A stretch of 64,000 nt of DNA from a bacterium CG_4_10_14_0_2_um_filter_33_32 (GCA_002792735.1 PFOW01000055.1:273-64272); one strand, 5' to 3'; positions 10,659-35,406 are shown, counted from the stretch's first letter. Notes: a model not told the origin generated them from the letters alone. Program-made: numbers and translations.

Positions 10659-11105
10659 TTACTGCCTTTCTTTTTGATTAATAAAATTATTGTTTTTTAT
10701 TTCCTGCAATTCTTTTTTTACTCCAGGGATTAAATCGTAATTATCTAATTCATCTAGTATTATCCAAGCGTAATCTGTAAAATCTTCCTTTTGAATATTC
10801 ACTTCTCCATCTTTTGCCTCACAAAGAAATCTGGGAATGACTACATGATAACCATCAGGTCTGGTAAACTCTGAATCGCCGATAAACTTAAAAATACCCG
10901 TTGTCTCTAAGTCGGTTTCTTCCTTGATTTCTCTTTCTAGTGTTTTCAAAATAGAACATCCTTTTTCAACTTTTCCACCCGGTACTGTCCACATACATGG
11001 TTGTGCTATCTCTTTTTCGCTTCTCTTTAATATCAAAAATTTGCCATCTTTTCTATATAAGAATCCAGTAACAGCCACGATGTGCAACTGATCATTACTT
11101 ACCAC
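10659..11105 (-). CDS. NUDIX hydrolase
   Basis: Nudix box GGKVEKGCSILKTLEREIKEETDL (GX5EX7REUXEEXGU). Confidence 0.8.
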   Translation of the reverse strand: MVSNDQLHIVAVTGFLYRKDGKFLILKRSEKEIAQPCMWTVPGGKVEKGCSILKTLEREIKEETDLETTGIFKFIGDSEFTRPDGYHVVIPRFLCEAKDGEVNIQKEDFTDYAWIILDELDNYDLIPGVKKELQEIKNNNFINQKERQ

Positions 11106-11322
11106 TTTTGCCTCTCTTGATAGTATTTAGACACGCCTTACATTCGTTGACAAATTCACTCTCAAGATTCTGTAATTTCTTGTAGCTTTCATAGGATGCT
11201 AGAACGCCAACCGGATCTGAATACCTAAGCAAAACATAGTTGCTTCCCTTACCAAGATCTTTTACTATCTTGGAAGTTTTATTTTGTAATTCGTTTATGT
11301 TTATAAATTTCTCTTTTGACAT
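11095..11322 (-). CDS. Phd/YefM-like antitoxin-fold small protein (orphan, no cognate toxin evident)
   Basis: 75 aa. …GSNYVLLRYSDPVGVLASYESYKKL resembles the YefM/Phd pattern (pVvItrrGkpvAVLvsyeeYe.L). It overlaps the Nudix gene start by 11 nt. Confidence 0.35.
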   Translation of the reverse strand: MSKEKFININELQNKTSKIVKDLGKGSNYVLLRYSDPVGVLASYESYKKLQNLESEFVNECKACLNTIKRGKSGK

Positions 11323-11388: not shown

Positions 11389-12027
11389 TTATTTACTTAA
11401 ACGTAATCCATTGCTAGTATCTATATTATTAGCATTTTGGTATTTACTATTATTAGGATCCTCCGCGGATTGTACCGCAGGATCCGCTCCACCAGACCAA
11501 TTGTTTTGTTTTAAAATCTTGTTGCTCCAACGACTAAAATATTCACTATATTCAAGTGCATGCATACCCGAACTACTTATTCTTACTTTAACAAGTTGCG
11601 TAGAAGGATCATTGTAACCGCTACCATCAGTTTTTATAATACCATTACCGTTAGGCTGCTCTCTTTTAACATCATAAATAAGCAATTCTCTCGTAAGATT
11701 TGTATCGTTAAGATTAATTGCTTCTGAGCCGCTAGCTAAATTCCATTGGTTTGAAGAAATAACGATATGATACGGATTACTGTCACCTTTATTTTGAGTT
11801 CCAAGAGGGCGATAAATCATATTCCAATTACTAGCCACCATTGATCTTGTAGCTTCAAGCCCTTCCTTAGCAAGAGCAGATGCCTGGGTTTGAGCACCGC
11901 CCACTTTTGTTGATTGAAGCGATGCCATAATAAGCGAAGCTATGGTGATAGCAAAAATAGACGTAATAGATATTGCGATAAGAGCTTCTGCCAAAAGTGA
12001 GCCTTGAGCTTCTTTCAAATATTTCAT
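11389..12027 (-). CDS. type IV pilin-like protein (prepilin-type N-terminus)
   Basis: MKYLKEAQG|SLLAEALIAISITSIFAITIASLI has Gly at -1 and Glu at +5 followed by a hydrophobic helix. It lies in the pilBC locus. Confidence 0.55.
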   Translation of the reverse strand: MKYLKEAQGSLLAEALIAISITSIFAITIASLIMASLQSTKVGGAQTQASALAKEGLEATRSMVASNWNMIYRPLGTQNKGDSNPYHIVISSNQWNLASGSEAINLNDTNLTRELLIYDVKREQPNGNGIIKTDGSGYNDPSTQLVKVRISSSGMHALEYSEYFSRWSNKILKQNNWSGGADPAVQSAEDPNNSKYQNANNIDTSNGLRLSK

Positions 12028-12542
12028 TGCATAGCCTCTATTCTCCCTGATTTGGTAACAACTATTTTTACAAAACCGGTTTCCTGCTTTCTGGAAATCC
12101 TAAAAGCAATACTGTTAGCACCATCCTGACTTGCTGTTCCATAATTATCCGTTTCTCCAGTTATCTTATTGAAAATTATGAATGATCCTCCACCATTTAT
12201 TGAAAAGTTATCGAATTGTAAGCTAGGCGGTAAATTATAAGATTTTTTAGAAACTGAAGTTTCCCACGGGTCCTCAAAAATTGTAAAAGTATCATTGCCC
12301 TCAATTTTAATACCCCATTTTTTTCCTAATTTCTGACTAATTGAATTTTTCTGGACCTCACGCATAAATGAAATAACTATTTTAGAATTTTCACTTAGTT
12401 CATTACTCTTTTGAAAAGATACATAACCATTTATCATAATAACGGATAATATACCCATTACTGCAACAACTATCAAAACCTCAATCAGCGTGAACCCTGA
12501 TTTATTACCGTGAATATTACTAATTATTTCCTTTATAGACAT
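12024..12542 (-). CDS. type IV pilin / pseudopilin
   Basis: …NKSG|FTLIEVLIVVAVMGILSVI is a canonical class III signal peptide with the GFTLIE motif. Confidence 0.8.
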   Translation of the reverse strand: MSIKEIISNIHGNKSGFTLIEVLIVVAVMGILSVIMINGYVSFQKSNELSENSKIVISFMREVQKNSISQKLGKKWGIKIEGNDTFTIFEDPWETSVSKKSYNLPPSLQFDNFSINGGGSFIIFNKITGETDNYGTASQDGANSIAFRISRKQETGFVKIVVTKSGRIEAMQ

Positions 12543-12552
12543 AATAATAAAA

Positions 12553-13764
12553 CTAACTTACTTTTGATATAAGCTGATATATAGGAGTAATAATAGCGAG
12601 TGCGATACCTCCTATACCAACTCCCATAATAACCATCATTATAGGCTCAATAAGTGTTGTCAGCTCTTTTAGGGTATTATCAACTTCTTCTTCATAAAAA
12701 CCTGCCATTTCAGATAATAGTTCGCTTAAATTACCGGTTTTCTCTCCTACATTGATCATACCTATTACGATATTAGGAAAAAGATCATTCCTATTTTTAA
12801 GTACGCGAGAAAGTGATATACCTTTGCTCACATCACTTAGAGAATTAAGTAGAGATTTTTTATAAACACTATTTAAAGTATCCGCCGTAAGTTCTATGGC
12901 GTCCATTATAGGAATACCGGCTGACACTGTACTGCCCAAAGTCCTGGCAAATCTAGCTAATTGGACATCCTGCACTAATTTATTAACTTTTGGAATTTTT
13001 AAGGATACAGAAGCTATAAAATTACGAACACTTTCCTGGCGAAGTGCGACAATAAAAGCAAAGATAGAAAAAATTCCAAGCACTATAAAAAGAATTAAAT
13101 TCTTACTTATGATTAAGCTGACCGCAATTATAATTTTAGTAAAAAGCGGCAACTTAACGCCTGATTGCGTAAAAAGATTAACTAACCTGGGCAAAACAAA
13201 AACTACCATTAATGCTATTACTGCGAAAGTGGATATTAAAAGTACGGCCGGATAAGTTAGCGCCCCCTTCACTTTACTGACCAAACTATAGTCTCTTCTT
13301 AAAAAATCAGTGAGTTTTTTTAAAGATTCTCCTAATTCGCCGGTCTCCTCTCCAGATTTCACCATATTTATATAATACTGAGAGAAAATCATTCGGTATC
13401 TTTTTAATACGCTCGAAATAGATTGCCCATTTTCAAGCCCAGTTTTTAAATCAGCAACCACTTTCTTTAAAATCTTATTTTTTGTATCATCAGCCAAGAC
13501 ATCAAAAGCATCATTTAAAGAAATACCGGCTTTTATCATTGTAGCTAAGTGCTCAGTAAAAATTATCTTATCTATTATTGGAACCCTGCCCAATAATCCA
13601 GCAGTTAACCTTTTGAATTTAGAAGTAGGCTTAGGTTCATTTACAGAAACTACAAAAAAATTTTGCCTTTTAAGAAAGGAGACTACCTGATCTTTTCCAC
13701 TTGCTTCCATCTCCCCCTGAGCTAATTTACCGCGGCTATCGATGGCTTGCCACTTAAATAACAT
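12553..13764 (-). CDS. pilC: type IV pilus inner-membrane platform protein PilC (GspF family)
   Basis: 403 aa, two GspF-type repeats and three TM helices, directly downstream of pilB. Confidence 0.85.
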   Translation of the reverse strand: MLFKWQAIDSRGKLAQGEMEASGKDQVVSFLKRQNFFVVSVNEPKPTSKFKRLTAGLLGRVPIIDKIIFTEHLATMIKAGISLNDAFDVLADDTKNKILKKVVADLKTGLENGQSISSVLKRYRMIFSQYYINMVKSGEETGELGESLKKLTDFLRRDYSLVSKVKGALTYPAVLLISTFAVIALMVVFVLPRLVNLFTQSGVKLPLFTKIIIAVSLIISKNLILFIVLGIFSIFAFIVALRQESVRNFIASVSLKIPKVNKLVQDVQLARFARTLGSTVSAGIPIMDAIELTADTLNSVYKKSLLNSLSDVSKGISLSRVLKNRNDLFPNIVIGMINVGEKTGNLSELLSEMAGFYEEEVDNTLKELTTLIEPIMMVIMGVGIGGIALAIITPIYQLISKVS

Positions 13765-13765
13765 T

Positions 13766-15472
13766 TTAATCCCTTATAACTCTCATTATTTCTTCATATG
13801 TTGTTATTCCTGATTCTGCTTTCTCTAAGCCGTCTTCTAGCATTCTCCTCATACCATCTTTAATGGCCTGGGCTTCTATTCTAGACTCAGGAGCTTTTTG
13901 AAGTACCAGTTCTCTAATTTCATTATTGACTCTTAATATTTCAAAAATACCTACCATACCTCTGTAACCAGAATTATGACATTCCTTACAACCCTTGCCT
14001 GCAAAAACTGTTTTGGGCAATTTATATTTTTTTATATCCTTACCAGATATCCCTAATTGATAAAATATACGCGATGCTTCTTCCTTTGTAATAGGTTTTG
14101 GTGTAATACAACCTGGGCAAACTCTTCTTACAAGACGCTGAGCAATAATTAAATTAACAGTTGATGCCAAAAGGAAAGGCTGAACACCTATATCAACTAA
14201 CCTAGGAATAGCGCCGGCAGCATTATTTGTATGTAGAGTTGAAAGAACCAAATGACCAGTTAAAGCTGCATGCACAGCTAGTTCGGCAGTATCGCTATCT
14301 CTAATTTCACCTACCATAATTATATCTGGGTCTTGTCTTAGTAAGCTCCTTAATCCATCGGCAAACGTTAACCCGGTTTTAACGTTAACCTGAATTTGAT
14401 TAACTCTTCGGATGTCATATTCAACGGGATCTTCTATCGTAGATATATTAACTTCCGGTTTATTGATTAAATGAAGAATAGTATAAAGACTTGTTGTTTT
14501 ACCAGAACCGGTAGGTCCAGTTGAAAGAACCATGCCATGTGTTTTTTTTATCGCATCCCTTATTACTGCCATGTCTTGCTGTTCTAGGCCAAGGCTTTCT
14601 AAATTCATCGGCCTTGCAGATTCCATAAGAAGTCTTAAAACTATTTTCTCACCATATATGGTTGGTATAACCGAAACACGAATAGCCATTGATGTTTCAT
14701 CCAGTTTATATCTAAATCTTCCATCCTGCGGAAGCCTATGCTCATCTATTTTTAAATCCGAAATAAGCTTCACTCTTGCGGCTAAAGCAGAATGCACTAT
14801 ATATGGCAGATTAATAACATCCTGCAATATGCCATCAATTCTAAATCTAACCAGCACTTCATCGTCTAAAGGTTCTATGTGAATATCAGAAGATTCCTGA
14901 GCAGCTGCATATTCAATTAAGGTATCCAGTATTTTAGTAACAGGAATATCTTGGGCCATTTTTTCAGCATCATTGACTCCGGTTGACATTGCCTTATCAA
15001 CATTTTCATTAATTATCTTGTCAAACTCCTGCGTAATCGATTTTTTATAACCAGAGAGCGCTTCCTTAAGATTTTTATGAGTAACTAAAACAGGATTTAT
15101 CTTTTTACCAATTTTTCTTTCCATAAACTGAATTGTTTTTAAATCCCCGGGATCTTCCATTGCTAAAGTAATATCCTTTTTGCTTGCTCCTACCGCTATC
15201 ACTTTATGAGTCTTGGCTATATTCTCAGGAACTAAAGAAAGCAATTCTGGTGTCATTTCAAAGCCCGAAAAATCAAAGAAAGGAACTTTAAAATAATCAG
15301 CGAGTATTTTAGTAAAATATTCCTCAGAAATTAAACCCTGCTCAATTAAAAGAGACTCAATATCCTGCGCTGTTCTTTTTGCCTCTTCTATTACAGAATC
15401 GAATTCTTTTTCACTAATAAACCCTGAAGATACTAAGGTATCTTTAAGTTCTTTTTCTGGAATATGTAGCAT
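13766..15472 (-). CDS. pilB: type IV pilus assembly ATPase PilB (GspE family)
   Basis: Walker A LSTGPTGSGKTTSLY, the Asp box, a His box and tetra-Cys CPGC…CKEC, as in GspE/PilB. Confidence 0.9.
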   Translation of the reverse strand: MLHIPEKELKDTLVSSGFISEKEFDSVIEEAKRTAQDIESLLIEQGLISEEYFTKILADYFKVPFFDFSGFEMTPELLSLVPENIAKTHKVIAVGASKKDITLAMEDPGDLKTIQFMERKIGKKINPVLVTHKNLKEALSGYKKSITQEFDKIINENVDKAMSTGVNDAEKMAQDIPVTKILDTLIEYAAAQESSDIHIEPLDDEVLVRFRIDGILQDVINLPYIVHSALAARVKLISDLKIDEHRLPQDGRFRYKLDETSMAIRVSVIPTIYGEKIVLRLLMESARPMNLESLGLEQQDMAVIRDAIKKTHGMVLSTGPTGSGKTTSLYTILHLINKPEVNISTIEDPVEYDIRRVNQIQVNVKTGLTFADGLRSLLRQDPDIIMVGEIRDSDTAELAVHAALTGHLVLSTLHTNNAAGAIPRLVDIGVQPFLLASTVNLIIAQRLVRRVCPGCITPKPITKEEASRIFYQLGISGKDIKKYKLPKTVFAGKGCKECHNSGYRGMVGIFEILRVNNEIRELVLQKAPESRIEAQAIKDGMRRMLEDGLEKAESGITTYEEIMRVIRD

Positions 15473-15494
15473 TTATCCTCCTAAAAATTAGAAA

Positions 15495-16094
15495 TTATGC
15501 CGGAACCAAAAAATAAATATTGTATATAAAAATAGGTAATGAAGAAATCAAAAGATATGGATATACGGATAATCTTTCTATGGCTTTACCTTTAATTTTA
15601 TAAAATATATGTGTTATAACCATCATAAAAAGAGCTATCACTATCAATACTATACCTCTATCCCATCCCATCAAAAAAGCAAGTACGAAATAAAACCAAA
15701 TTTCATAAATAGAAATAATTTGTGAATTTCTTTTATAAAGTTTGTATAAAACTAAAGAAAAAACAGTTGCTGAAATAAATGACCAGATAAAATATTCTCC
15801 GAGGTTAAATAAAAAAAGTGATGCTGTGTACTTTGAATCTATAGCTTTAGCCATAAAACTACCAGGTAATTTATAAATCATGATTTGTAAAGTTGTCCAA
15901 TATATCACAAAGCAAAAAGATATAATTAACGAACCATAAGCTAATCGTCTAATCACCCGGGCATCAACAACTTCTCTTCTAAAGAAAAAATGATAACCTA
16001 ATGACAGAATAATAGATAACACCAGTACGGGTTTCCACCAAATAAAAACAGGTGATAAATAAGAAAGAATACCAACGATTTTTTCTAAACTCAT
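15495..16094 (-). CDS. polytopic membrane protein, possibly a short (TadV-like) A24 prepilin peptidase
   Basis: 199 aa with 5-6 TM helices. It sits between the major pilin gene and pilB, the classic pilD position. It has an Asp in the first cytoplasmic loop (EVVDARV) and a G-W-D-R-G segment that might correspond to the GGGD motif. This is weak. Confidence 0.3.
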   Translation of the reverse strand: MSLEKIVGILSYLSPVFIWWKPVLVLSIILSLGYHFFFRREVVDARVIRRLAYGSLIISFCFVIYWTTLQIMIYKLPGSFMAKAIDSKYTASLFLFNLGEYFIWSFISATVFSLVLYKLYKRNSQIISIYEIWFYFVLAFLMGWDRGIVLIVIALFMMVITHIFYKIKGKAIERLSVYPYLLISSLPIFIYNIYFLVPA

Positions 16095-16164
16095 ATTATA
16101 ATTTTAAGCCAAAAGTTTAATTTATTCAATCAGAAACAATAATTTTTATATAAATAATCAGCAT

Positions 16165-16192
16165 TATGAAAACCCCGATCAATATCGGGGTT
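16165..16192 (-). terminator. intrinsic terminator downstream of the major pilin gene
   Basis: 9-bp perfect stem AACCCCGAT/ATCGGGGTT with a 4-nt loop. On the minus sense it is followed by UUUUCAU. Confidence 0.55.
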
Positions 16193-16219
16193 TAAATTCA
16201 GTTTAAGCTATAATGTAGA

Positions 16220-16768
16220 TTAACCCGTGGCAACAGCTAAGTCATTACCTACTTCGTAACGATTTGCGTTATTACCGCCGTCTTTACCGTCTTTATCTTG
16301 AGTTGTTGTGTATTCGGTCGATTCAAAAGCACAGTCAATTTTGTAATGCCCGGCACCATCATGTATAAATCTGTAAAAGCTGGTGACGCTATTCTGTGGG
16401 TCTAATGGCAGGGCGGAAATAGGCGCGCCGGATGATACCGTTGAGAAATCTAACGGTACCCAACCGGTACCTGTATTACTCTGTACAGCCGTACCCGTAG
16501 TTGCCGGGGTAGCAGTTGTAGCATAAACAGTAGTTGTTGCCGCTGTAGCGTAAGTTTCATTCTCAGTAAATGCAGTAAAGGATTTCCCGTCGGTTAAGGC
16601 TAAATTTATGGCTGTTTGGATAGTGCCCATATCCGATATTCTTTGCGAATCACGGCTTTTTTTCATCATTTCAACAGGATTAATAACTAACACAATAACC
16701 GCGGCTAAAATACCGATGATTGCGATAACAACCAAAAGCTCAATTAATGTAAACCCTTTCTTTCCAAT
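16220..16768 (-). CDS. pilA: major type IV pilin (PilA-like); true start upstream of the first canonical start codon
   Basis: An in-frame stop TAA (16783-16781) is followed by ATA CAA AGA AAA ATT GGA AAG AAA GGG TTT ACA TTA ATT GAG, giving (M)QRKIGKKG|FTLIELLVVIAIIGILAAVIV. The first ATG/GTG/TTG (TTG at 16735) lies after the conserved GFTLIE. AGGAGG sits 4 nt before the ATA. The C-terminal half is Thr/Ala-rich. Confidence 0.8.
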   Translation of the reverse strand: MGKKGFTLIELLVVIAIIGILAAVIVLVINPVEMMKKSRDSQRISDMGTIQTAINLALTDGKSFTAFTENETYATAATTTVYATTATPATTGTAVQSNTGTGWVPLDFSTVSSGAPISALPLDPQNSVTSFYRFIHDGAGHYKIDCAFESTEYTTTQDKDGKDGGNNANRYEVGNDLAVATG

Positions 16769-16810
16769 TTTTCTTTGTATTTATCCTCCTAGAAAAATTT
16801 GTTATAAAAA

Positions 16811-17209
16811 TTATTTAGAATGCTCTTTTTTGCATTTTCGAACAGCCTCTACCACATCATTAGGCTGAAGCCGAGATTTAACCATAAATCCGACAGCTCC
16901 TAATTTATAGGCTTTCTGTTCATCATTACCATTACTCATACTAAGATTGGTAAGTAGCAACACAGGTATATTAGCAATATTCTTAATTTTACCACGAGCT
17001 TCTAAGAATTCAAAACCATTCATTTCAGGCATCATAATGTCCAATAAGATAACGTCAAATTTGTTATCTTTTTTTAATAAATCCAAAGCTTCTTTACCGT
17101 TATATTTTATAACAATATCAAGACCTTCGAATTTGAATTTTCGTTCGTACATTCTTGTCATTAATTGGTCGTCATCTACCAACAAAATGCGCACTCTTGC
17201 CTCAAACAT
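16811..17209 (-). CDS. stand-alone response-regulator receiver domain (CheY/PilH-like)
   Basis: 132 aa with ILLVDDDQLMTRMY, FDVILLDIMMPEMNGFEFL and KLGAVGFMVK. There is no output domain. Confidence 0.8.
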   Translation of the reverse strand: MFEARVRILLVDDDQLMTRMYERKFKFEGLDIVIKYNGKEALDLLKKDNKFDVILLDIMMPEMNGFEFLEARGKIKNIANIPVLLLTNLSMSNGNDEQKAYKLGAVGFMVKSRLQPNDVVEAVRKCKKEHSK

Positions 17210-17275
17210 TATACTTTTATTATATTTTACCAGAAATACGGTTCAATTGCAATCATTTATACGCTCCGCTATCAC

Positions 17276-19474
17276 CTAAATCATGATTTTTTTACGGGTC
17301 GATGAATCTTCTTGTTCTTTTGTTTTCTTTTTTGCGATTGGCAGAGAAAAAGCAAAAGTTGTTCCTTTGCCAAAAACAGATTTCTCTATCCAAATATCCC
17401 CACCCATGGCTTTCATATATTGTCTGCATATATATAATCCTAAACCTGTTCCGCCCTTTTGGTTAGTAAGAGTAAGATTAACCTGAAAAAATTTCTGGAA
17501 GAGTTTTGATCTGTCTTCTTTCTTTAAACCTGCTCCGGTGTCACTTATATAAGTAACCAGATATTTACCCTTAACTTTTTGGTTGATAGTAATCCCGCCT
17601 TTCTCTGTAAATTTCAATGAGTTTCCCATTAAATTAGTAAGGACTTCCGATACCTTCCCTTCATCGCCTAATAGGAGCATACTCTGCTTTTTGGGAGAAT
17701 ATTTGATATAAAGACCTTTTCCTTTGGCAATATTTTTTAAATACTCTATTACTCTATGAGCAGATTCGACAATATTGAAATTGGACATATGATATACCAT
17801 TCTACCCTGTTCAATCCTTGAGACATTAAGCATATCTTCTACTAAGATTAACAATCGCTGACTTCCTGAATAAGCATCCTCAAGAAACTCTCTTGTATAA
17901 TTATCTATTTTACCGGCCTCTCCATCTAAAACCATTCTTAAATTGCCGGAAATAGCTGTCATTGGAGTTCTAAGTTCATGAGAGGTTACCGATAAAAATA
18001 CATCCTTAGCTTTATTCATTGTGATTTCTTTTGTTATATCAGTTATTATTAATACTTGCCCTATTATAATTCCATTATCATTATCGTTATCCTTATCACT
18101 AATAATAGGAGAAATTATAGCCGAATAAGTAAGCCCGGTGGTCTTCTCGAAAGTTAAATTCATTACCTTTTGGATAGCTGTTCTTAATAATTTATCATTA
18201 GGAAATTTTATTTTTGCCTTACTATCTTTCATACATAAATATTTCCCATCCTTGAAAAGACAGCTTATCCTTTCTCCCTTGAGTATGAAATCTTTATGAT
18301 TTACTGGCGCTACAAAATTAGTAAGAGTTTTTTCTAGATTTTCAAAACCTAATATACCCTGAACACTTTTATGCAAAATATTTTCTCTTTTTACACCAAA
18401 ATTTTCTTCGGCAGTTTTATTCATTTCTAAAACGAAACCTTTATCATCAACCACTAAAAGACCGCTACCAATGCTTTTCAATATTGCCTGTTCTTCGTTC
18501 TCTTTAACCTGAATCTTATTAAGAAGAGTGGCATTACTTATTACAACACTTATAACCTTACAAAGCTTTTCATAAAAATTTATAGTTTTTTCATTATTGA
18601 TATCTTTCTTAGAATCTAAGCAGCAAACAGTACCCATGACATTCTTACCGTCAATAATAGGACTAATTATTACAGTATCTGCACTTAATACCGGAGTCCG
18701 ATAAATCCTCTGATCAGACTGTGCATGATCAGATATCATAATCTTTTTTTCTGAAAATGCTATGCCATTAAGTGATTTATTTATATCAATTTTCAGTGTA
18801 TCTGTTTGCTTATTATTTAAGCCAGAACTTCCATTCTGTGCTTCTAATCTATTCGTTTCTTTATTGTATATAAAAAGTATGACTCTTCTGGCCTCCATGC
18901 TTTGAACAACTATTCTTGTAACCACAGCTACCAACTTAGAAAATTCTTTTGCCCATACCACAGACTGAGAAACTTTTGTTAAAGATTCAGATTGAACAAG
19001 AGCAACTTCAAGTTCTTCCTCGGATATATTCATATCCTCAAGAATATTAAGCATAGCCTTTTTTGAATCAGTTAATTCTGCAATCATCTTCTCTAAATCT
19101 GTGTTTTTAAACTGTAAATCAACAGCTTTTTTCTGAAACATTTCTTCCAATTTTTCCGCATATTCCTGGGTAGTTCTTTGAAGTATTGCATCCTCTTCTA
19201 AGGTTTTGTAAATTAAATCAACCGTCATCAATACATAAATAGATCCGGCGGCAAAAATGATTATAGTAAGAAAATCAGTATTTACTTTTATTTCTTTAAA
19301 ATGGATGAATGTAAATGCAACATAGCCGAAGAAAAAAGCGATAATTAATACAAACATCAAGCGCCAAAGATTTTTATAACTGCTTAGTCTTACATATTTA
19401 AAAACCTTCAGACACCTAAGTGCCGAATAGATAATCATCAAAATTCCGAAAAATAAAAGAAAAAATCCTAACAT
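17276..19474 (-). CDS. membrane sensor histidine kinase (TM - coiled coil - GAF/PAS - HisKA - HATPase_c)
   Basis: H-box SHELRTPMTAISG, N-box LMGNSLKFT and G-boxes DTGAGL / GGTGLGLYICRQ. Three N-terminal TM helices. Confidence 0.85.
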   Translation of the reverse strand: MLGFFLLFFGILMIIYSALRCLKVFKYVRLSSYKNLWRLMFVLIIAFFFGYVAFTFIHFKEIKVNTDFLTIIIFAAGSIYVLMTVDLIYKTLEEDAILQRTTQEYAEKLEEMFQKKAVDLQFKNTDLEKMIAELTDSKKAMLNILEDMNISEEELEVALVQSESLTKVSQSVVWAKEFSKLVAVVTRIVVQSMEARRVILFIYNKETNRLEAQNGSSGLNNKQTDTLKIDINKSLNGIAFSEKKIMISDHAQSDQRIYRTPVLSADTVIISPIIDGKNVMGTVCCLDSKKDINNEKTINFYEKLCKVISVVISNATLLNKIQVKENEEQAILKSIGSGLLVVDDKGFVLEMNKTAEENFGVKRENILHKSVQGILGFENLEKTLTNFVAPVNHKDFILKGERISCLFKDGKYLCMKDSKAKIKFPNDKLLRTAIQKVMNLTFEKTTGLTYSAIISPIISDKDNDNDNGIIIGQVLIITDITKEITMNKAKDVFLSVTSHELRTPMTAISGNLRMVLDGEAGKIDNYTREFLEDAYSGSQRLLILVEDMLNVSRIEQGRMVYHMSNFNIVESAHRVIEYLKNIAKGKGLYIKYSPKKQSMLLLGDEGKVSEVLTNLMGNSLKFTEKGGITINQKVKGKYLVTYISDTGAGLKKEDRSKLFQKFFQVNLTLTNQKGGTGLGLYICRQYMKAMGGDIWIEKSVFGKGTTFAFSLPIAKKKTKEQEDSSTRKKIMI

Positions 19475-19494
19475 ACAATTTTAAAATAAAACTA

Positions 19495-21531
19495 TTATTT
19501 GCCTTGTTTAAATTTATTAATTTCTTTTTTTAGCTCAATCATTTTCAATTCCCTCGATACAACAATTTTCTCCAGAGTATTCAACTCTTTATTTTTTTGC
19601 TCCAATATCTCTAGATGCTCATTTAAGCTATGCTCCTGTTTTTTAATGTCAGAAATATCTCTAACAAATGTTGATACTGCTATAGGTTTATCGCTTGAAT
19701 CTTCAATCAAATATGCAAATACTGACACGGGTATTCTTTTTTTGTTTTTGGTTATTCGTTCGCTTTCAAATACATGAAATTCGTTAGCCATAATCTGATT
19801 AAAACAAGATTTAGTTTCTTCTACTCTGCTTTGGGGAATAATTGTAAATACAGATTTCCCTATCATCTCTTCTCTCTTATAACCAAGCAGCTCTTCTGCG
19901 CCATGATTCCACTCTAATATTTTCATATTAAAATCAATTACTATGATTGTCTCTAAGGAATCACGAATTATATTTGCCAAAAAGAGATTTTTCTCTTTAA
20001 ATAACTGCTCCTCGGTAACATCTCTGGAATATTCTATAATATTATCGATATTCCCTGCATTATCTAACACGGGGTATTGCCAAACATCAAAAATTCTTGC
20101 GCCATATTTCATAGAAAAATTTATAGGTTTTTTTGTCTTAATTAGCTCCTTTACCTGACATCCCGGGCAACGATCCGTAAGTTTTTGTGTTATCTCGAAA
20201 CACTTTTGAGTCTTTATACTGTTAAAATTTTTAATCTTCAAATCTTCCCTAGCTTTTTTGTTAGCATTAATAATATGAAGATCCTTATCTAATAAAATAA
20301 TATAATCAGACAAGGAATCAAAAATCAATTCCCATTCTTGCTTTGATTTTTCGTAATGATTTTTCTCTTTTATCAGCTGCACTTCTTTTTCTTTAAGATC
20401 GGATATATCCCTCATAAAAGAAGCGACTCCGCTTGGATTACCCTTATCATCCTCTAATACAAAAGAGCTACATAAAATAGGTATTAATGTTTTATCCTTT
20501 TTTAGTCTTACGCTTTCGTATACATGATTTTTATCTTTTAATATTTTTTCGAATATACGCTTTGTTTCAACGTGTTTATCTTCTGGAATAATCCTTATAA
20601 ATGATTCCCCTACAATCTCATTAACTTTGTAACCAAACACCTTTTCGGCACCCTTATTCCAATTTACTATAGAACCATTCAAGCTAACTATCAGAATGGG
20701 GTCTATGGCTTTGTCCATAGCATCTACTAAAACACTATTTTCTTTCTTTACTCTTTCTTCTAATGTAACATCTTTACCGTATTCAATCACCTGTTGTATT
20801 TTTCCGTCTTCATCAAGAATCGGATAAAACCATAAATGATATTTTCTGTTGCCAAAAATATCTATTAAAATATCACGAGGTTTTTTATCCCTTAAAACAT
20901 TGCGAACAACGCACCCTTCACAAATACCCTTATTGCCTTGAAAAAAATTAAAACATTTTATCGACTTATTAGGATCAAATTTTTTTCCTGAGAGCTCAGC
21001 TGCTTTCTTGTTCGCACGGATGACATTAAGATCTTTATCAAGTATAGCGACAAGATCATTTATAGAGTTGAATGTCTGCTCCCAATCATCTGTAGTTTTT
21101 TTAAATTTTTCTTCTTTTCTTTCTAGATCTTCCTTTGTCTTATTATCACTAGTTTTATCAACACCTATAGAAAGAATCAAATCAGCCCCAGCGGCCTTAA
21201 AATAAATATTTCTCCAAGAAACAAAAAGTCTTGATCCATTTTTCTTCAAGATATCGTTCTCGTAGATTTGAAAGGTTTTTTTCTTGGATATTAAACTACT
21301 AAAAATTATCTTTAACCTTTTTCTTATTTCTTTTCTGATAAATAAATCAAAGAAATTTTTCCCAATAACCTCTTCTTCCTTATAACCAAGTTTCTTCAGG
21401 GTTACTTTACTTAAGTAGACAATTTTCCCTTGAAAATCCAAAACAACAACTATATCCTGAAAATTTTCAAACAGTTCATGTATATACGAATCAATACTTA
21501 TTTTCTTTAAAGAAGAGGATTTTACAAACAT
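19495..21531 (-). CDS. cytoplasmic multi-PAS domain sensor protein lacking a kinase domain
   Basis: 678 aa with at least four PAS-like blocks and a C-terminal coiled coil. Two paralogous Cys clusters: KCFNFFQGNKGICEGCVV and KCFEITQKLTDRCPGCQV. It ends 20 nt before the HK gene. Confidence 0.7.
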   Translation of the reverse strand: MFVKSSSLKKISIDSYIHELFENFQDIVVVLDFQGKIVYLSKVTLKKLGYKEEEVIGKNFFDLFIRKEIRKRLKIIFSSLISKKKTFQIYENDILKKNGSRLFVSWRNIYFKAAGADLILSIGVDKTSDNKTKEDLERKEEKFKKTTDDWEQTFNSINDLVAILDKDLNVIRANKKAAELSGKKFDPNKSIKCFNFFQGNKGICEGCVVRNVLRDKKPRDILIDIFGNRKYHLWFYPILDEDGKIQQVIEYGKDVTLEERVKKENSVLVDAMDKAIDPILIVSLNGSIVNWNKGAEKVFGYKVNEIVGESFIRIIPEDKHVETKRIFEKILKDKNHVYESVRLKKDKTLIPILCSSFVLEDDKGNPSGVASFMRDISDLKEKEVQLIKEKNHYEKSKQEWELIFDSLSDYIILLDKDLHIINANKKAREDLKIKNFNSIKTQKCFEITQKLTDRCPGCQVKELIKTKKPINFSMKYGARIFDVWQYPVLDNAGNIDNIIEYSRDVTEEQLFKEKNLFLANIIRDSLETIIVIDFNMKILEWNHGAEELLGYKREEMIGKSVFTIIPQSRVEETKSCFNQIMANEFHVFESERITKNKKRIPVSVFAYLIEDSSDKPIAVSTFVRDISDIKKQEHSLNEHLEILEQKNKELNTLEKIVVSRELKMIELKKEINKFKQGK

Positions 21532-21595
21532 GTAACCGTCCTTTTTACTCCTTATATTATAAACAATATTTTAAGTATGACCAATGAGCTAAATC

Positions 21596-21790
21596 TTATT
21601 TCTTTTGCAAAGACTCATAACCTTCAATATCAAAGTGTGCCGGCTGAGATTGATAATCTGTTTTATTGCTAGTAATTAATCTTAATTCTTTAGCAACGAA
21701 AAATATCGAAAAAGAAACAAGACCTATCATAAAAAATATTGTTGTTGATAAAAATATAATTCTAAATTTTCGATTTCCTAAACGATTCAT
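21596..21790 (-). CDS. hypothetical small single-TM protein
   Basis: 64-aa ORF between the PilO-like gene and the PAS gene. One hydrophobic helix. It may be spurious. Confidence 0.25.
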   Translation of the reverse strand: MNRLGNRKFRIIFLSTTIFFMIGLVSFSIFFVAKELRLITSNKTDYQSQPAHFDIEGYESLQKK

Positions 21791-22335
21791 TAATCCCTCG
21801 TATAAACTCTAAACTTAATTATTGCAATAGCTGATAAATCTAATGACCCCTCCGAAGAAGCTGTAATATTTATTGATTCTATGGTTGTATAATATTTAAG
21901 ATTTTCTAAACCGGATAAATACTGATTTATAGCGTTAAGCTTTCCCTTTAAATTAACCTCTAACGCTACATTATTTGTGTCGCTTACTATTTTACTCTTA
22001 GAAGCTTCCTTACCTTCTGTAAAACTAATTGTCTGGGTATTATTGGTTTGGGAAGCTAAAGACTCTAAAGAATCCAAAAACGGACTAAGCTTATCTTTTA
22101 ATGGGAATATTTCGGAAAAAGATATCCAACCCGGTTCCAACTGCTTGTATTCTTTCTCTAAAGCACTTTGAGTTGTTGATTGATGATTTAATGCCTCTTT
22201 AAGCGCCTGTTTTTGTTTTATTTCATTTATATCTCTCTTTACAGCTGAATTAAAATAAAACACAACTAACAAAGAAACTGTTATTGCAAATATTATCTTG
22301 ATTAAAGCAAAATTTAAAGATTTATTTTTTCTCAT
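21790..22335 (-). CDS. PilO-like type IV pilus assembly protein
   Basis: 181 aa with an N-terminal TM helix, a coiled-coil segment and a periplasmic C-terminal domain. It overlaps the PilM/N gene end. The call rests on position and architecture. Confidence 0.4.
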   Translation of the reverse strand: MRKNKSLNFALIKIIFAITVSLLVVFYFNSAVKRDINEIKQKQALKEALNHQSTTQSALEKEYKQLEPGWISFSEIFPLKDKLSPFLDSLESLASQTNNTQTISFTEGKEASKSKIVSDTNNVALEVNLKGKLNAINQYLSGLENLKYYTTIESINITASSEGSLDLSAIAIIKFRVYTRD

Positions 22336-23755
22336 TTTTTCCTGTCTTCAAGGTAATCTTAAAAATTGTATTCTCTTTCTGTGAAATAGATGATAGAGGC
22401 AAATCAATCTCAGAAAAATAAGAAGCTTTTTCAAGATTATCCTTATATTCTAAAACACCCTCTCTTTTGGCTGATATTCCTTCAATAATCAGATTGCTTT
22501 TTGCTGCATCAAATGAAATCTTGGTTAGTCTAACACTGCCTGGTAAATTTCCTAAAGCCACTGAGAATTTTTTTTCAATCTCCTGCTTTGAAGATTCTAA
22601 TTCTTTCATTCTTTTTACTTGATTATTAAAATCCTTTGATTTTTCTTCTAGGCCCTTATAGGCAGGGTTTGTCTTTGTTGCGTTTATTGAAATTCTATTA
22701 TCTAAATCTGCCCTGAATTGATTGAGAAAAAATGCAAAACCTAAAAAAAGCAATAAAATAATAATTACTAAAACGCTAAAAATATTACCAATGGCGTTAT
22801 AAATAAGGAAGCTTTTTTCTTTCTCATACTCCTCTTTAACACCTAAGGGCAAAAGACTAATCTCCGTATCATCTTGCCTGGCCTTAATCCCCCTAAGAGA
22901 AGCTCCTGATAAGCTGAGATTATCAATATCCTTAAGTTCTGGTTTTCTTTCAACTATCTTGATCTTTGCAGACAACTTATTTTCTAATAAACTAATAATT
23001 TTTTTAGCTTCGGAACTACTATCAATATCAAAATGAAAAGAATCCAATATTAACCCCTTTTTATCGGATGTATAAAAATTTAATACTTTAATAATTTCCA
23101 AAACTATATCTTGCAAATAGTTATTAGATTTAATAATCTTACTGCTTTCTACAAATCTTAAGCCTTTCTTTTCATAAACATACAAAGCAAGCTCGCAGTC
23201 ACGGTATATCACTCCTACAAAAGTCTCCTGCTTATCAAGGGCTGTTCTTAAATGAGAAGAAGTGTAAGTCTCAAAAGCATAGGAAATGACTTTTGCTTTT
23301 GTAAATATCCCAACTAATTTGTTTATTAAAAATTTGGAAGAAGTGGATATTAAATATTCTTTTTTATTTCTTTCTCCTCTAACATTCGGTATCTCTTGCC
23401 AATGGATGAGGCTATCCGACTTATCAAAAGGAACATCTAACTCCACGTTTAATTCAATAGCTGATGAAAGTTCTTCCTGCGGAGTGTTTATAGGCACATA
23501 TTCACTGCTGATATAAGATAAATTATCAGGAAAAGTTACAATAATTTCTGATTTTTTAAAAAATGATCTATTTTTCTTATATATAATATTAAGGTTTTTC
23601 TCTAAATTGCTTATGTCTTCATCGTTATTAAAATCATTTATTTTGCATGGATATTTTAAAACATTAGAAAAAATAATAGATTTTTTTCTATTTTCTTTAA
23701 TATTTTGTACGTAAATATTTTCGCCGGTTATTTGTATACCAGTAGCGTACTTCAA
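22322..23755 (-). CDS. PilM-PilN fusion (actin-like PilM domain, TM helix, PilN-like C-terminus)
   Basis: 477 aa. The N-terminal ~320 aa resemble PilM/FtsA-like actin-fold proteins. A TM helix (FSVLVIIILLLFLGFAFFL) is followed by a coiled-coil and periplasmic tail, as in PilN. Confidence 0.55.
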   Translation of the reverse strand: MKYATGIQITGENIYVQNIKENRKKSIIFSNVLKYPCKINDFNNDEDISNLEKNLNIIYKKNRSFFKKSEIIVTFPDNLSYISSEYVPINTPQEELSSAIELNVELDVPFDKSDSLIHWQEIPNVRGERNKKEYLISTSSKFLINKLVGIFTKAKVISYAFETYTSSHLRTALDKQETFVGVIYRDCELALYVYEKKGLRFVESSKIIKSNNYLQDIVLEIIKVLNFYTSDKKGLILDSFHFDIDSSSEAKKIISLLENKLSAKIKIVERKPELKDIDNLSLSGASLRGIKARQDDTEISLLPLGVKEEYEKEKSFLIYNAIGNIFSVLVIIILLLFLGFAFFLNQFRADLDNRISINATKTNPAYKGLEEKSKDFNNQVKRMKELESSKQEIEKKFSVALGNLPGSVRLTKISFDAAKSNLIIEGISAKREGVLEYKDNLEKASYFSEIDLPLSSISQKENTIFKITLKTGKNEKK

Positions 23756-23756
23756 A

Positions 23757-24158
23757 TTATGGAACCTCCTCTTCTTGCCAACTGTCTTGAACTACCTTTC
23801 CATCATTATCAACTGAAACTATAACTTTTATTCTTTTTTTTACGTCATCAACTTGGCTTGAAGAAATTATGGTTGTTTTCCCTGATATTGGCTGATTGCG
23901 CTCAACTGTAATTGTAGCAGAACCTCCAGAAAGCTGCAAAACATAACCAGAGCTCTGAAAGTTCTTATTTCTGGTTACCATTACTAAACCATCTCTCGCC
24001 CCTGCTTCTGCCATAGAAAGAGCTTGTCTGGCCTTTCTATCATTATTGCTTATATTCAGCTCACCAAAAGAAACTGCACCCAAGGTTAAACCTATAACTA
24101 ATAATATACTAGTAACCACTATCGTTGTTATAAGCAATGCTGACCCTTTATTATCCAT
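23757..24158 (-). CDS. PilX-like minor pilin/pilus assembly protein
   Basis: N-terminus MDNKGSALLITTIVVTSILLVIGLTLGAVSFGE resembles PilX-type N-termini (GSALIvaLi.l.vLtllgvs). Confidence 0.35.
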   Translation of the reverse strand: MDNKGSALLITTIVVTSILLVIGLTLGAVSFGELNISNNDRKARQALSMAEAGARDGLVMVTRNKNFQSSGYVLQLSGGSATITVERNQPISGKTTIISSSQVDDVKKRIKVIVSVDNDGKVVQDSWQEEEVP

Positions 24159-24168
24159 AAATCTATTC

Positions 24169-24708
24169 CTATTTAAGAGAAACTGTTGTTTGGTAATCCT
24201 GAAAAAGAATAATTTCTGTTCCTTTTTTATACTCTATACGAAAATTGATTTGAACTGTGGGCTTTGAACCGGTATTTTTTACCAATCTAAAGTAAGGAAA
24301 ATCACTACCTGTGTTTCTTTTTTTAAAAGATACCGCTTTTGTTGTTAGCTCAGTAGTCTCTAATAAATTGGCGCCTTCATAAATCTTAATAGTGAGAACA
24401 CCCGAATTTATCTCATAAACAGTATCTTTGCCATCGCTCATATGAAGCGATAAAGAATCTGATGTAGGAGAACCTTCGGTGGGCTGATTAACGCTTTCTG
24501 CCTTACCTATGTCCTGATTTAATTTTTCCAGAATAAAACGGCCATTCTGCTGAATTTCAGTAGAAGCAGAGCTTCTATTAGATGCCTTTAGAACCGGATA
24601 AACCATACTCACAACAGCGATTGTAACAAAACCCAAAATAGCTACGTATATTACAAGCTCAATTAAAGTTACCCCTCGTTCCATTGTTTCATTGTTCCAT
24701 TGTTTCAT
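24169..24708 (-). CDS. type IV pseudopilin (PilV/PilW-like)
   Basis: …MERG|VTLIELVIYVAILGFVTIAVV is a canonical prepilin cleavage/methylation motif. Confidence 0.75.
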   Translation of the reverse strand: MKQWNNETMERGVTLIELVIYVAILGFVTIAVVSMVYPVLKASNRSSASTEIQQNGRFILEKLNQDIGKAESVNQPTEGSPTSDSLSLHMSDGKDTVYEINSGVLTIKIYEGANLLETTELTTKAVSFKKRNTGSDFPYFRLVKNTGSKPTVQINFRIEYKKGTEIILFQDYQTTVSLK

Positions 24709-34700: not shown

Positions 34701-34737
34701 GATTGACGAAACACGCTACTTGCACTATTCTAAGAAT

Positions 34738-35406
34738 ATGCCGCGTAGAAAAACCATCTTTATAAATAACGGGATTTATCATGTTCTAAATAAAGGCGTA
34801 AATAGCGCACCTATATTTTTGAATAATAATGACCATCAAAGATTCTTAGATATAGTCAATCTATGTAGATATAATCCCCAAATAAAATTTTCACTATATA
34901 ATCGTCTACATAAACAAGAAAAAAACGAATTTTTGGATAATTTAAAAAAGAAACACGAACCTATTATAGATATTTTAGCTTTTAGCCTAATGCCTAATCA
35001 CTTTCATCTCTTATTAAAACAACTCCAAGACAAAGGTATACAGATTTTTTTAGGAAACCTTCAAAATAGCTATGCCAAGTATTTTAATATAAAAAATAAA
35101 AGAACAGGACCTCTTTTCCAATCTGCTTTTAAATCAATAGATATAGAAACAGACGAACAACTTATCCATGTCTCAAGATATATACACTTAAACCCTGTAT
35201 CCTCTTACATAATAGATATTGAAAACTTAGAAAATTACAAATGGTCTTCTTTCGGCAATTATTTAAATGATAAAAAATATGAGTTCGTAGCCTCTGCAAC
35301 AATTCTAGGATACTTCAAGACGCAGAGTAAATACAGAAAATTTGTCTTTGACCAAGCTGATTACCAAAGAGAACTAGAAGAAATAAAACACTTAGCAATA
35401 GAATAA
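34738..35406 (+). CDS. IS200/IS605-family Y1 (HuH) transposase, REP-associated (RAYT-like)
   Basis: MPRRKTIFINNGIYHVLNKGVN…, HuH motif MPNHFHLLL and catalytic-Tyr region SRYIHLNPV. The ORF track extends it to a TTG at 34720, but the ATG at 34738 is more likely. Confidence 0.7.
   Translation: MPRRKTIFINNGIYHVLNKGVNSAPIFLNNNDHQRFLDIVNLCRYNPQIKFSLYNRLHKQEKNEFLDNLKKKHEPIIDILAFSLMPNHFHLLLKQLQDKGIQIFLGNLQNSYAKYFNIKNKRTGPLFQSAFKSIDIETDEQLIHVSRYIHLNPVSSYIIDIENLENYKWSSFGNYLNDKKYEFVASATILGYFKTQSKYRKFVFDQADYQRELEEIKHLAIE

Follow-up and report, generated by a model that had tools for sequence, protein, structure and literature searches.

The 64,000-nucleotide stretch analyzed here (the window; GCA_002792735.1, PFOW01000055.1:273-64272, from bacterium CG_4_10_14_0_2_um_filter_33_32) carries, between positions 11389 and 24708, a type IV pilus (T4P) gene cluster that includes its own sensor kinase and a receiver without an output domain, an arrangement that relatives share and that suggests direct switching of the pilus motor in response to a signal. 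The window is part of a low-GC contig (approximately 33%) with nearly all of its genes on the minus strand, and it is identical to a JGI metagenome contig (Ga0100397_1000145). The host is an ultra-small groundwater bacterium of a CPR2-like Patescibacteria lineage. T4P are the main known means by which Patescibacteria locate host cells, attach to them, and compete for them (PMC12206443, PMC9894109).

Gene content and order of the locus

Domain and profile searches assigned to this locus genes for PilB, PilC, five pilin-like proteins, a PilX-like protein, a PilM-PilN fusion (PilMN), PilO, a protein with five PAS domains (the PAS-only protein), a histidine kinase (HK), and a receiver (Table 1). 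Transcription on the minus strand, from 24708 to 11389, runs through the genes for a 179-amino-acid (aa) pilin-like protein, the PilX-like protein, PilMN, PilO, a 64-aa transmembrane (TM) protein, the PAS-only protein, the kinase, the receiver, the major pilin, a 199-aa membrane protein, PilB, PilC, a 172-aa pilin, and a 212-aa pilin-like protein. Intergenic gaps are short or the genes overlap, the exception being a gap of 125 nucleotides (nt) after the major pilin gene. A first-pass annotation of this DNA had named twelve of these genes, and all twelve lie in that order on the minus strand where it had placed them; its PilM, PilN, and PilO assignments are backed by Pfam and family-level profiles. 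Its description of the locus as complete is not established, because PilT and a canonical PilD both went unfound in the 64-kb window: the open reading frames (ORFs) scanned with Pfam across it include one T2SSE gene only and no canonical PilD. No secretin is present, as expected for a monoderm-type cell, and the cluster is a type IVa-like pilus machine of the monoderm type. The conserved block reaches upstream to at least 26032 and probably extends to 33271.

Table 1. Positions of features in and around the T4P locus of the window and of related genes in other loci (prefix L)
Feature	Position	Strand	Basis or remark
TIG/IPT surface protein, 2404 aa	26057..33271	-	Pfam TIG x12, fn3 domain
Secreted protein, 280 aa	25190..26032	-	No Pfam match; orthologs in the same position
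GIY-YIG nuclease, stand-alone, 96 aa	24792-25082	-	Between the 280-aa gene and the first minor pilin gene
Minor pilin (pseudopilin), 179 aa	24169..24708	-	N_methyl 21.0 bits (marginal), G|VTLIE motif
PilX-like minor pilin, 133 aa	23757..24158	-	PilX_N 27.2 bits, above the cutoff of 25.5
PilM-PilN fusion, 477 aa	22322..23755	-	PilM_2 (aa 6-158) and PilN (aa 404-468), both below cutoff
PilO, 181 aa, N-terminal TM helix	21790..22335	-	Pfam PilO 20.7 bits, below cutoff
Single-TM protein, 64 aa	21596..21790	-	Orthologs after PilO
PAS-only protein, 678 aa, cytoplasmic	19495..21531	-	Five PAS stretches (Pfam)
Sensor histidine kinase, 732 aa, membrane-anchored	17276..19474	-	GAF, PAS, HisKA, HATPase_c (Pfam)
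Stand-alone receiver, 132 aa	16811..17209	-	Response_reg alone, 71.9 bits
Major pilin	16220..16780	-	Prepilin leader, then G|FTLIELLVVIAIIGILAA
GC-rich hairpin, 10 bp	16170..16193	-	After the major pilin gene
Polytopic membrane protein, 199 aa	15495..16094	-	Predicted fold like that of A24 (FlaK); catalytic Asp pair absent
PilB extension ATPase, 568 aa	13766..15472	-	T2SSE 431.7 bits and MshEN N-domain 52.6 bits
PilC platform protein, 403 aa	12553..13764	-	T2SSF x2, 197 bits
Minor pilin, 172 aa	12024..12542	-	N_methyl 30.9 bits
Pilin-like protein, 212 aa	11389..12027	-	G|SLLAE; no Pfam match
Large minor-pilin gene	L092:6882-8870
Large minor-pilin gene	L094:4333-6255
Large minor-pilin gene	L095:6984-8981
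Receiver-only gene	L049:11718-12080
Receiver-only gene	L055:11715-12095
Receiver-only gene	L079:11643-12038

The sensor module and its inheritance with pilA and pilB

The kinase starts with three TM helices (residues 1-25, 35-60, and 64-89) joined by very short loops, which are followed by a coiled coil and by GAF, PAS, HisKA (His499), and HATPase_c domains. Since the helices leave almost no external loops, sensing probably takes place via the cytoplasmic GAF and PAS domains. All of the kinase boxes are intact, namely, the H-box SHELRTP (His499), the N-box at 614, the G1 box DTGAGL at 645, the F-box at 659, and the G2 box GGTGLGL at 674. Judging from its sequence, the kinase looks catalytically competent and cytoplasm- or membrane-sensing. 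The receiver retains the conserved Asp (D57), a point raised by the first-pass annotation, along with D12, D13, T87, and K111, and the receivers of six lineages are 121 to 132 aa long with no output domain. The pair thereby carries the classical features of a two-component system, that is, the H, N, G1, F, and G2 boxes in the kinase and an acidic pocket, phospho-Asp, Thr, and Lys in the receiver. The closest solved relatives of the receiver are generic (AdeR, CpxR, CheY, and RR468). Its designation as PilG/PilH-like thus stands for the stand-alone, CheY-like architecture but not for any specific sequence kinship, and no CheA-type kinase, MCP, or CheW accompanies it; CheA, MCP, CheW, Hpt, a sigma-54 activator, GGDEF/EAL, and PilZ were all missing from the Pfam-scanned ORFs of the window. 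Helix 1 of the kinase DHp domain and helix 1 of the receiver are near-invariant within CPR2 and are both altered in two more distant loci (L092 and L095), a pattern that fits a pairing of the two proteins but carries no statistical weight with six lineages. The public names of a 121-aa CPR2 ortholog of the receiver (L084:15277-15642) are "DNA-binding response regulator" and "OmpR family," yet the protein has no DNA-binding domain; this naming is an annotation error that masks its stand-alone nature.

The PAS-only protein has the layout A-B-C-B'-C', in which the B-C unit is duplicated at 39% identity, with no output domain and no predicted TM helix. It is of variable length (308, 432, and 678 aa, the orthologs having 308 to 432 aa), and all versions share a coiled-coil tail (VVSRELKMIELKKEI; consensus LE.KN..L..LE+.VVSRELKM(I/L)ELK). 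By inspection, the stretch VSRELKMIELK of this tail resembles a degenerate H-box (SHELRTP), a likeness from which we claim nothing. The B domains contain a C-x11-C-x2-C motif (residues ~190 to 215 and ~450 to 475), which is also found in L082 but not in L084 or L089 and may be a metal or redox site. A more specific NreB-like Fe-S reading of these domains was set aside as speculation, given that there are three Cys only and that the domain is missing in L084 and L089. A weak match (3e-4) links the last PAS domain to an N-terminal portion of the DosP heme PAS; a heme-PAS reading was rejected because the position of the heme-ligating His is unconserved, by our own inspection rather than by the result of a tool.

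Relatives of the locus were sought among fetched contigs encoding PilMN homologs (labeled L0xx). Gene order is identical in three further lineages, namely, L082 (PilMN 47% identical to that of the window), a set of contigs assigned to candidate division CPR2 by NCBI/UniRef (L083-L086, L088, and L091; 34%), and L089/L090 (33%). The common order is the small TM gene, the PAS-only gene, kinase, receiver, pilin, membrane protein, PilB, PilC, and two pilins, preceded upstream by genes for a 263- to 280-aa secreted protein and a larger surface protein. The placement of the sensor module, on which the first-pass annotation had staked its reading, therefore recurs in three other lineages with 33 to 47% PilMN identity. 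Identities to the window proteins in L082 and L084, respectively, are 72% and 66% for the receiver, 59% and 51% for the kinase (47% in L089), 68% and 50% for the major pilin, 67% and 34% for the PilX-like protein, 59% and 41% for the 280-aa secreted protein, 47% and 34% for PilMN, 46% and 25% for PilO, and 45% and 38% for the PAS-only protein; PilB and the 199-aa membrane protein are not on the L082 contig and are 66% and 37% identical in L084. Because the values for the kinase and the receiver are near that for PilB and above those for PilMN and PilO, the two-component proteins are among the most constrained in the locus.

The same parts are arranged differently in more distant loci. In L095, a Candidatus Berkelbacteria contig (PilMN 27% identical to the window), the order is kinase (GAF, GAF, PAS, and HisKA), 129-aa receiver, pilin, 191-aa membrane protein, PilB, PilC, pilin, a 665-aa protein, two small pilins, and PilMN. 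The corresponding order in L092 (PilMN 28%) is receiver, kinase, pilin, PilB, PilC, pilin, a 662-aa protein, two pilins, PilMN, PilO, and a 66-aa gene, and the kinases of both loci are 26% identical to the window kinase over nearly the full length. Many other Patescibacteria loci have the order PilB-PilC-pilin172-pilin212-pilin179-PilX. The 212-aa protein of the window matches residues ~12 to 200 of the products of the 640- to 665-aa genes in L092, L094, and L095 (phmmer, 1e-24 to 3e-35), and the 280-aa protein matches their C-terminal ~110 to 140 residues (~530 to 670; phmmer). Since the two window proteins match its two ends, it appears that a permutation broke this large minor-pilin gene and that both halves survived; the intact 640- to 665-aa minor pilin is possibly a tip adhesin.

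As judged from these gene orders, a cut inside the large minor-pilin gene is the simplest reading of the CPR2 arrangement. The ancestral order would have been of the Berkelbacteria type, i.e., HK/receiver-pilA-(membrane protein)-pilB-pilC-minor pilins-pilMN-pilO-small TM gene. In the CPR2 clade, a circular permutation with its break within the large minor-pilin gene would then have left the sensor module in mid-operon, with the C-terminal fragment, two minor pilins, PilMN, PilO, and the small TM gene moved upstream of the sensor genes. The unit kinase/receiver-pilA-(membrane protein)-pilB-pilC is kept together in both arrangements, and the PAS-only gene, which is found in the permuted clade alone, sits at the junction. 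The first-pass annotation had located the two-component module exactly between the assembly genes and pilA; that position is real but secondary, resulting from the permutation, and the conserved unit is HK/receiver-pilA-pilB.

Output of the receiver

This CPR2-related T4P cluster carries a two-component pair that is co-inherited with pilA-pilB, and on balance we consider it somewhat probable that the pair is dedicated to the pilus and that its receiver gates pilus extension. The PAS-only protein would probably feed the kinase through direct contact, the kinase would phosphorylate the receiver at Asp57, and the receiver would most likely bind PilB, the PilC N-domain, or the PilM domain, thereby gating extension rather than transcription. 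Output via protein-protein contact is a reasonable supposition because the phosphorylation residues are intact and an output domain is missing in six lineages and because the kinase boxes are intact; the PilB-like conservation of the kinase and receiver, above that of PilMN and PilO, is further support. More tentatively, the PAS/GAF kinase and bare receiver may form a vertically inherited phospho-switch that acts directly on the extension motor in CPR2 and Berkelbacteria-type lineages, a proposal that we rate as plausible but short of probable. If true, this would give ultra-small episymbiotic bacteria their first dedicated route from a signal to the pilus, and host contact or redox state might be what it reports.

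Several known receivers offer precedents. Phosphorylated PixG of Synechocystis binds PilB1 and PilC (PMC11181946); the output-less DrdR of Xanthomonas binds both PilB and PilT and increases the ATPase activity of each (PMC13507683); and PilG and PilH of Pseudomonas are CheY-like receivers controlling T4P (PMC11656802). Like the window receiver, PixG/PixH, DrdR, and PilG/PilH have no DNA-binding domain, and they work by contacting PilB, PilC, PilT, or polarity factors. PixG/PixH and PilG/PilH depend on a CheA-type kinase with MCP and CheW, whereas the window has a linked HisKA kinase and no chemosensory genes. PixG carries a PATAN output domain, whereas the window receiver is bare; DrdR has two REC domains and is an orphan, whereas the window receiver has a linked kinase. 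No specific sequence relationship ties the window receiver to any of these regulators. The Pil-Chp system shares the trait of a stand-alone receiver, but its ChpA, PilJ, and PilI have no counterpart among the Pfam-scanned window ORFs. PilS-PilR of Pseudomonas, Myxococcus, and Geobacter likewise consists of a membrane HisKA kinase and a regulator inside the pilus cluster near pilA, pilB, and pilC; PilR, however, is an NtrC-type sigma-54 activator (AAA+ and helix-turn-helix), in contrast to the 132-aa bare receiver, and the window kinase differs from PilS in its three TM helices, GAF and PAS domains, and additional PAS-only partner.

Within the Patescibacteria, T4P locus two of Saccharibacteria TM7x, which specifies a thin, host-binding pilus, also has pilB, pilC, and pilM/N/O and no retraction ATPase (PMC12206443), but its gene order and pilin set differ from those of the window, and no two-component genes are described in the paper. 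The text of that study of Saccharibacteria pili contains none of the terms "response regulator," "two-component," and "histidine kinase," and that of another does not contain "response regulator" (PMC9894109). The locus is not a new kind of system, as two-component genes within pilus clusters, CheY-like motor control, and GspL-like fusions are known already. New in Patescibacteria is the combination of three features: a bare receiver, a GAF/PAS HisKA kinase, and a PAS-only protein that are co-inherited with pilA-pilB; an operon permutation by which a large pilin gene was cut in two; and a FlaK-like protein without catalytic aspartates (see below). To our knowledge, nothing has been reported on the control of T4P in reduced Patescibacteria, and an HK and bare receiver traveling with pilA-pilB constitute a concrete, testable candidate for it. 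The components are small and soluble or single-pass and are thus suited to heterologous biochemistry.

A genome scan with PilB gave 32 other Patescibacteria-type loci among the matches listed, which did not include the CPR2 relatives (the best listed match was 49% identical, versus 66% for CPR2 PilB). Seven of these 32 loci have a single-domain receiver gene adjoining pilB: in four (L003, L010, L014, and L021), a kinase, a single-domain receiver, or both lie immediately upstream of pilB, and in three (L049, L055, and L079), a 121- to 132-aa receiver separates pilB from pilT, with no kinase in the vicinity. The latter three are of the PilB-PilT-PilC-pilin-PilD type, with a canonical PilD. Bare receivers beside pilB are recurrent in Patescibacteria, although the two studies of Saccharibacteria pili cited above make no mention of them, and those abutting pilB in about one-fifth of the other sampled loci are further candidates for pilus control.

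Several points weigh against direct gating of the motor. The contact between receiver and motor is one that we infer, and the receiver lacks specific similarity to PilG and PilH, its best solved relatives being generic. Single-domain receivers can be phosphate sinks or relay intermediates. Many Patescibacteria pilus loci have no linked two-component genes, the survey of regulators and partners covered the 64-kb window, and pilA lies directly downstream of the receiver gene, as it does after PilS-PilR elsewhere, which makes a transcriptional route through an unlinked partner possible. Such a module would control mainly pilA in the manner of PilS-PilR, with the receiver as an intermediate for, or a partner of, an unlinked DNA- or RNA-polymerase-binding factor. 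The start of pilA 30 nt after the receiver gene and the strong hairpin behind it would suit this role, as would the retention of the HK/receiver-pilA adjacency in L092 and L095 and the kinase and NtrC-type pairs beside pilC/pilA in deltaproteobacterial loci (L032, L035, L037, L050, and others). However, the receivers of six lineages have neither a DNA-binding nor an AAA+ domain, the window yielded no Hpt, sigma-54 activator, or second regulator, and the three other Patescibacteria loci with a receiver between pilB and pilT do not place it beside a pilin gene. We regard transcriptional control as unlikely.

The receiver could also act as a phosphate sink or modulator, as PilH or a CheY sink does, with the real output of the kinase elsewhere in the genome. 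Single-domain receivers are often sinks, and PilH has been proposed to be one (PMC11656802); moreover, L089 has a second kinase approximately 10 kb upstream. This role nevertheless appears very unlikely, considering that the kinase has a single linked receiver, that reduced genomes carry few spare regulators, and that this receiver exceeds every other protein of the locus in conservation (66 to 72%), which better fits a specific partner surface than a passive sink. It is still more improbable that the two-component genes became neighbors of the pilus genes through an accident of rearrangement and regulate something other than pili. The PAS-only gene does lie exactly at the permutation junction, and most Patescibacteria pilus loci are without a linked kinase, but HK, receiver, pilA, and pilB are contiguous in both arrangements even though the kinases are only 26% identical, and the genes are separated by short gaps and all lie on the same strand. 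Gating of extension by the receiver remains our preferred reading.

Other components of the pilus machine

An exhaustive HMMER search with PilMN (E ≤ 1e-3) returned 1281 cluster representatives, most of the top 150 being 460 to 520 aa long and aligning over query residues ~50 to 470; a word-indexed search gave 3 matches only, and a metagenome scan with the PilMN alignment yielded 5 loci only. Within a 50-member alignment, 49 members match PilM_2 and 32 match PilN. The resulting profile matches solved PilM proteins (2e-36 for 3jc8, 7e-29 for 2ych, and 5e-25 for 5eou) and, at 0.009, Myxococcus xanthus PilN. A cytoplasmic actin-like PilM domain is followed by an ISLLP motif, one TM helix (aa ~314 to 349), and a PilN ectodomain; the ISLLP at the PilM/PilN junction resembles the INLLP-type N terminus of PilN. 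The fusion proposed by the first-pass annotation is real, both halves lying in one reading frame and being kept across homologs, and it is the ordinary form of a large family with a GspL-like architecture. GspL of the type II secretion system likewise combines a cytoplasmic actin-like PilM/GspL domain, a single TM helix, and an ectodomain of the PilN type in one polypeptide, a layout that engineered PilM-PilN chimeras (PDB 5EOU) share. In comparison with GspL, the window fusion is PilM plus PilN by sequence, with the PilN-type ISLLP motif. The literature searched held nothing relevant on a natural PilM-PilN fusion ("pilMN"); as general background, a fused pilMN is attributed to Clostridioides difficile. 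The PilM-PilN complex is considered a GspL ortholog (PMC4471445). In Saccharibacteria TM7x, pilM, pilN, and pilO are separate genes (PMC12206443), whereas the window type of fusion is the common form in this Patescibacteria group (1281 representatives).

The PilO assignment is borne out by a profile of orthologs, whose best solved match is M. xanthus PilO (3jc8_O; 1.7e-4), and by Pfam PilO matches in four of seven orthologs (best, 3.2e-8). The 64-aa protein, which was missing from the first-pass annotation, has a TM helix at aa 8 to 39, orthologs of 63 to 70 aa, and a conserved C-terminal F-[DN]-x-x-x-[YF]-x-x-x-K motif. Its gene follows PilO in L082, L084, L092, L093, and L094, whether the locus is permuted or not, and the protein is probably an unrecognized component of the alignment subcomplex.

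The 199-aa membrane protein had been described as a putative A24 peptidase, a description that holds at the level of the fold, since its predicted fold resembles FlaK with the six TM helices of A24/FlaK, but not at that of sequence matches or catalytic residues. Neither Pfam at E ≤ 10 (three orthologs) nor a PDB sequence profile nor Foldseek against the PDB gave a match, and a single-sequence AlphaFold2 model (mean predicted confidence [pLDDT] of 59.5) was too poor for use. The canonical A24 hidden Markov model did not match the protein, although it detected PilD in L049, L055, and L079. An hhalign comparison with six genuine A24 peptidases was nonsignificant (3% probability); this same alignment pairs E131 with the GxGD Asp, G143-W144 with the A24 "GW," and P179 with "PFGPF." E131 is invariant in a 4-sequence alignment and is present in all six full-length rows of a 7-sequence alignment, whereas no Asp is invariant in either alignment, and the first catalytic Asp is without a counterpart. 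The GxGD proteases PilD and FlaK thus have Asp at a position where this family has an invariant Glu, with no sequence-level match between them. We conclude that the protein has an A24-like fold but not the catalytic residues that define these peptidases. Two readings follow, one of an unusual enzyme and the other of a pseudo-peptidase or accessory protein in a genome that encodes its canonical PilD at another place; that it is a working prepilin peptidase using Glu, and hence a new catalytic variant of the GxGD proteases, we consider unlikely.

The ORF of the major pilin starts at 16780 with an ATA codon (16778-16780) that aligns with the ATG of the L082 and L084 orthologs and is preceded by an AGGAGG-ATAA spacer identical to theirs. 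The first canonical start, an internal TTG at 16735, is used in the JGI call (171 aa) and drops the prepilin leader and G|FTLIE. The ATA could be a weak noncanonical start, the result of a recent mutation of the start codon, or a variant that arose in sequencing or assembly. Read from the ATA, the protein has a class III signal peptide (KKG|FTLIELLVVIAIIGILAA). Automated annotation loses several parts of this locus, with the pilin truncated by the ATA start, the receiver mislabeled as DNA-binding, and the FlaK-like protein called hypothetical. The hairpin behind the gene folds with -20 kcal/mol (z = -4.06; none of 200 shuffled sequences folded as well) and is probably an intrinsic terminator or attenuator; a simple terminator scan did not list it.

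Among the minor pilins, orthologs of the 179-aa protein occupy the same slot before PilX in L011, L014, L015, L026, L092, L094, and L095, and those of the 172-aa pilin come after PilC in many Patescibacteria loci. The E5 motif of the 212-aa protein was read directly from the sequence. Upstream, the C-terminal region of the 2404-aa surface protein is 59% and 48% identical to the proteins in the same position in L082 and L084, respectively. Its C-terminal ~140 aa are kept in a much shorter, 449-aa CPR2 protein and resemble part of the 280-aa secreted protein. The surface protein is probably pilus-associated and a member of the locus, and it may be an adhesin.

Directly downstream of the last pilin gene, a Phd/YefM antitoxin-like gene (11095-11322, minus strand) overlaps a NUDIX hydrolase gene (10659-11105, minus strand); no toxin partner was recognized for it. 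A gene for an IS200-like Y1 transposase (34720-35406, plus strand) lies upstream of the locus on the opposite strand. The stand-alone GIY-YIG gene is missing from the same junction in L082, L084, and L089 and for this reason looks like a lineage-specific insertion into the operon.

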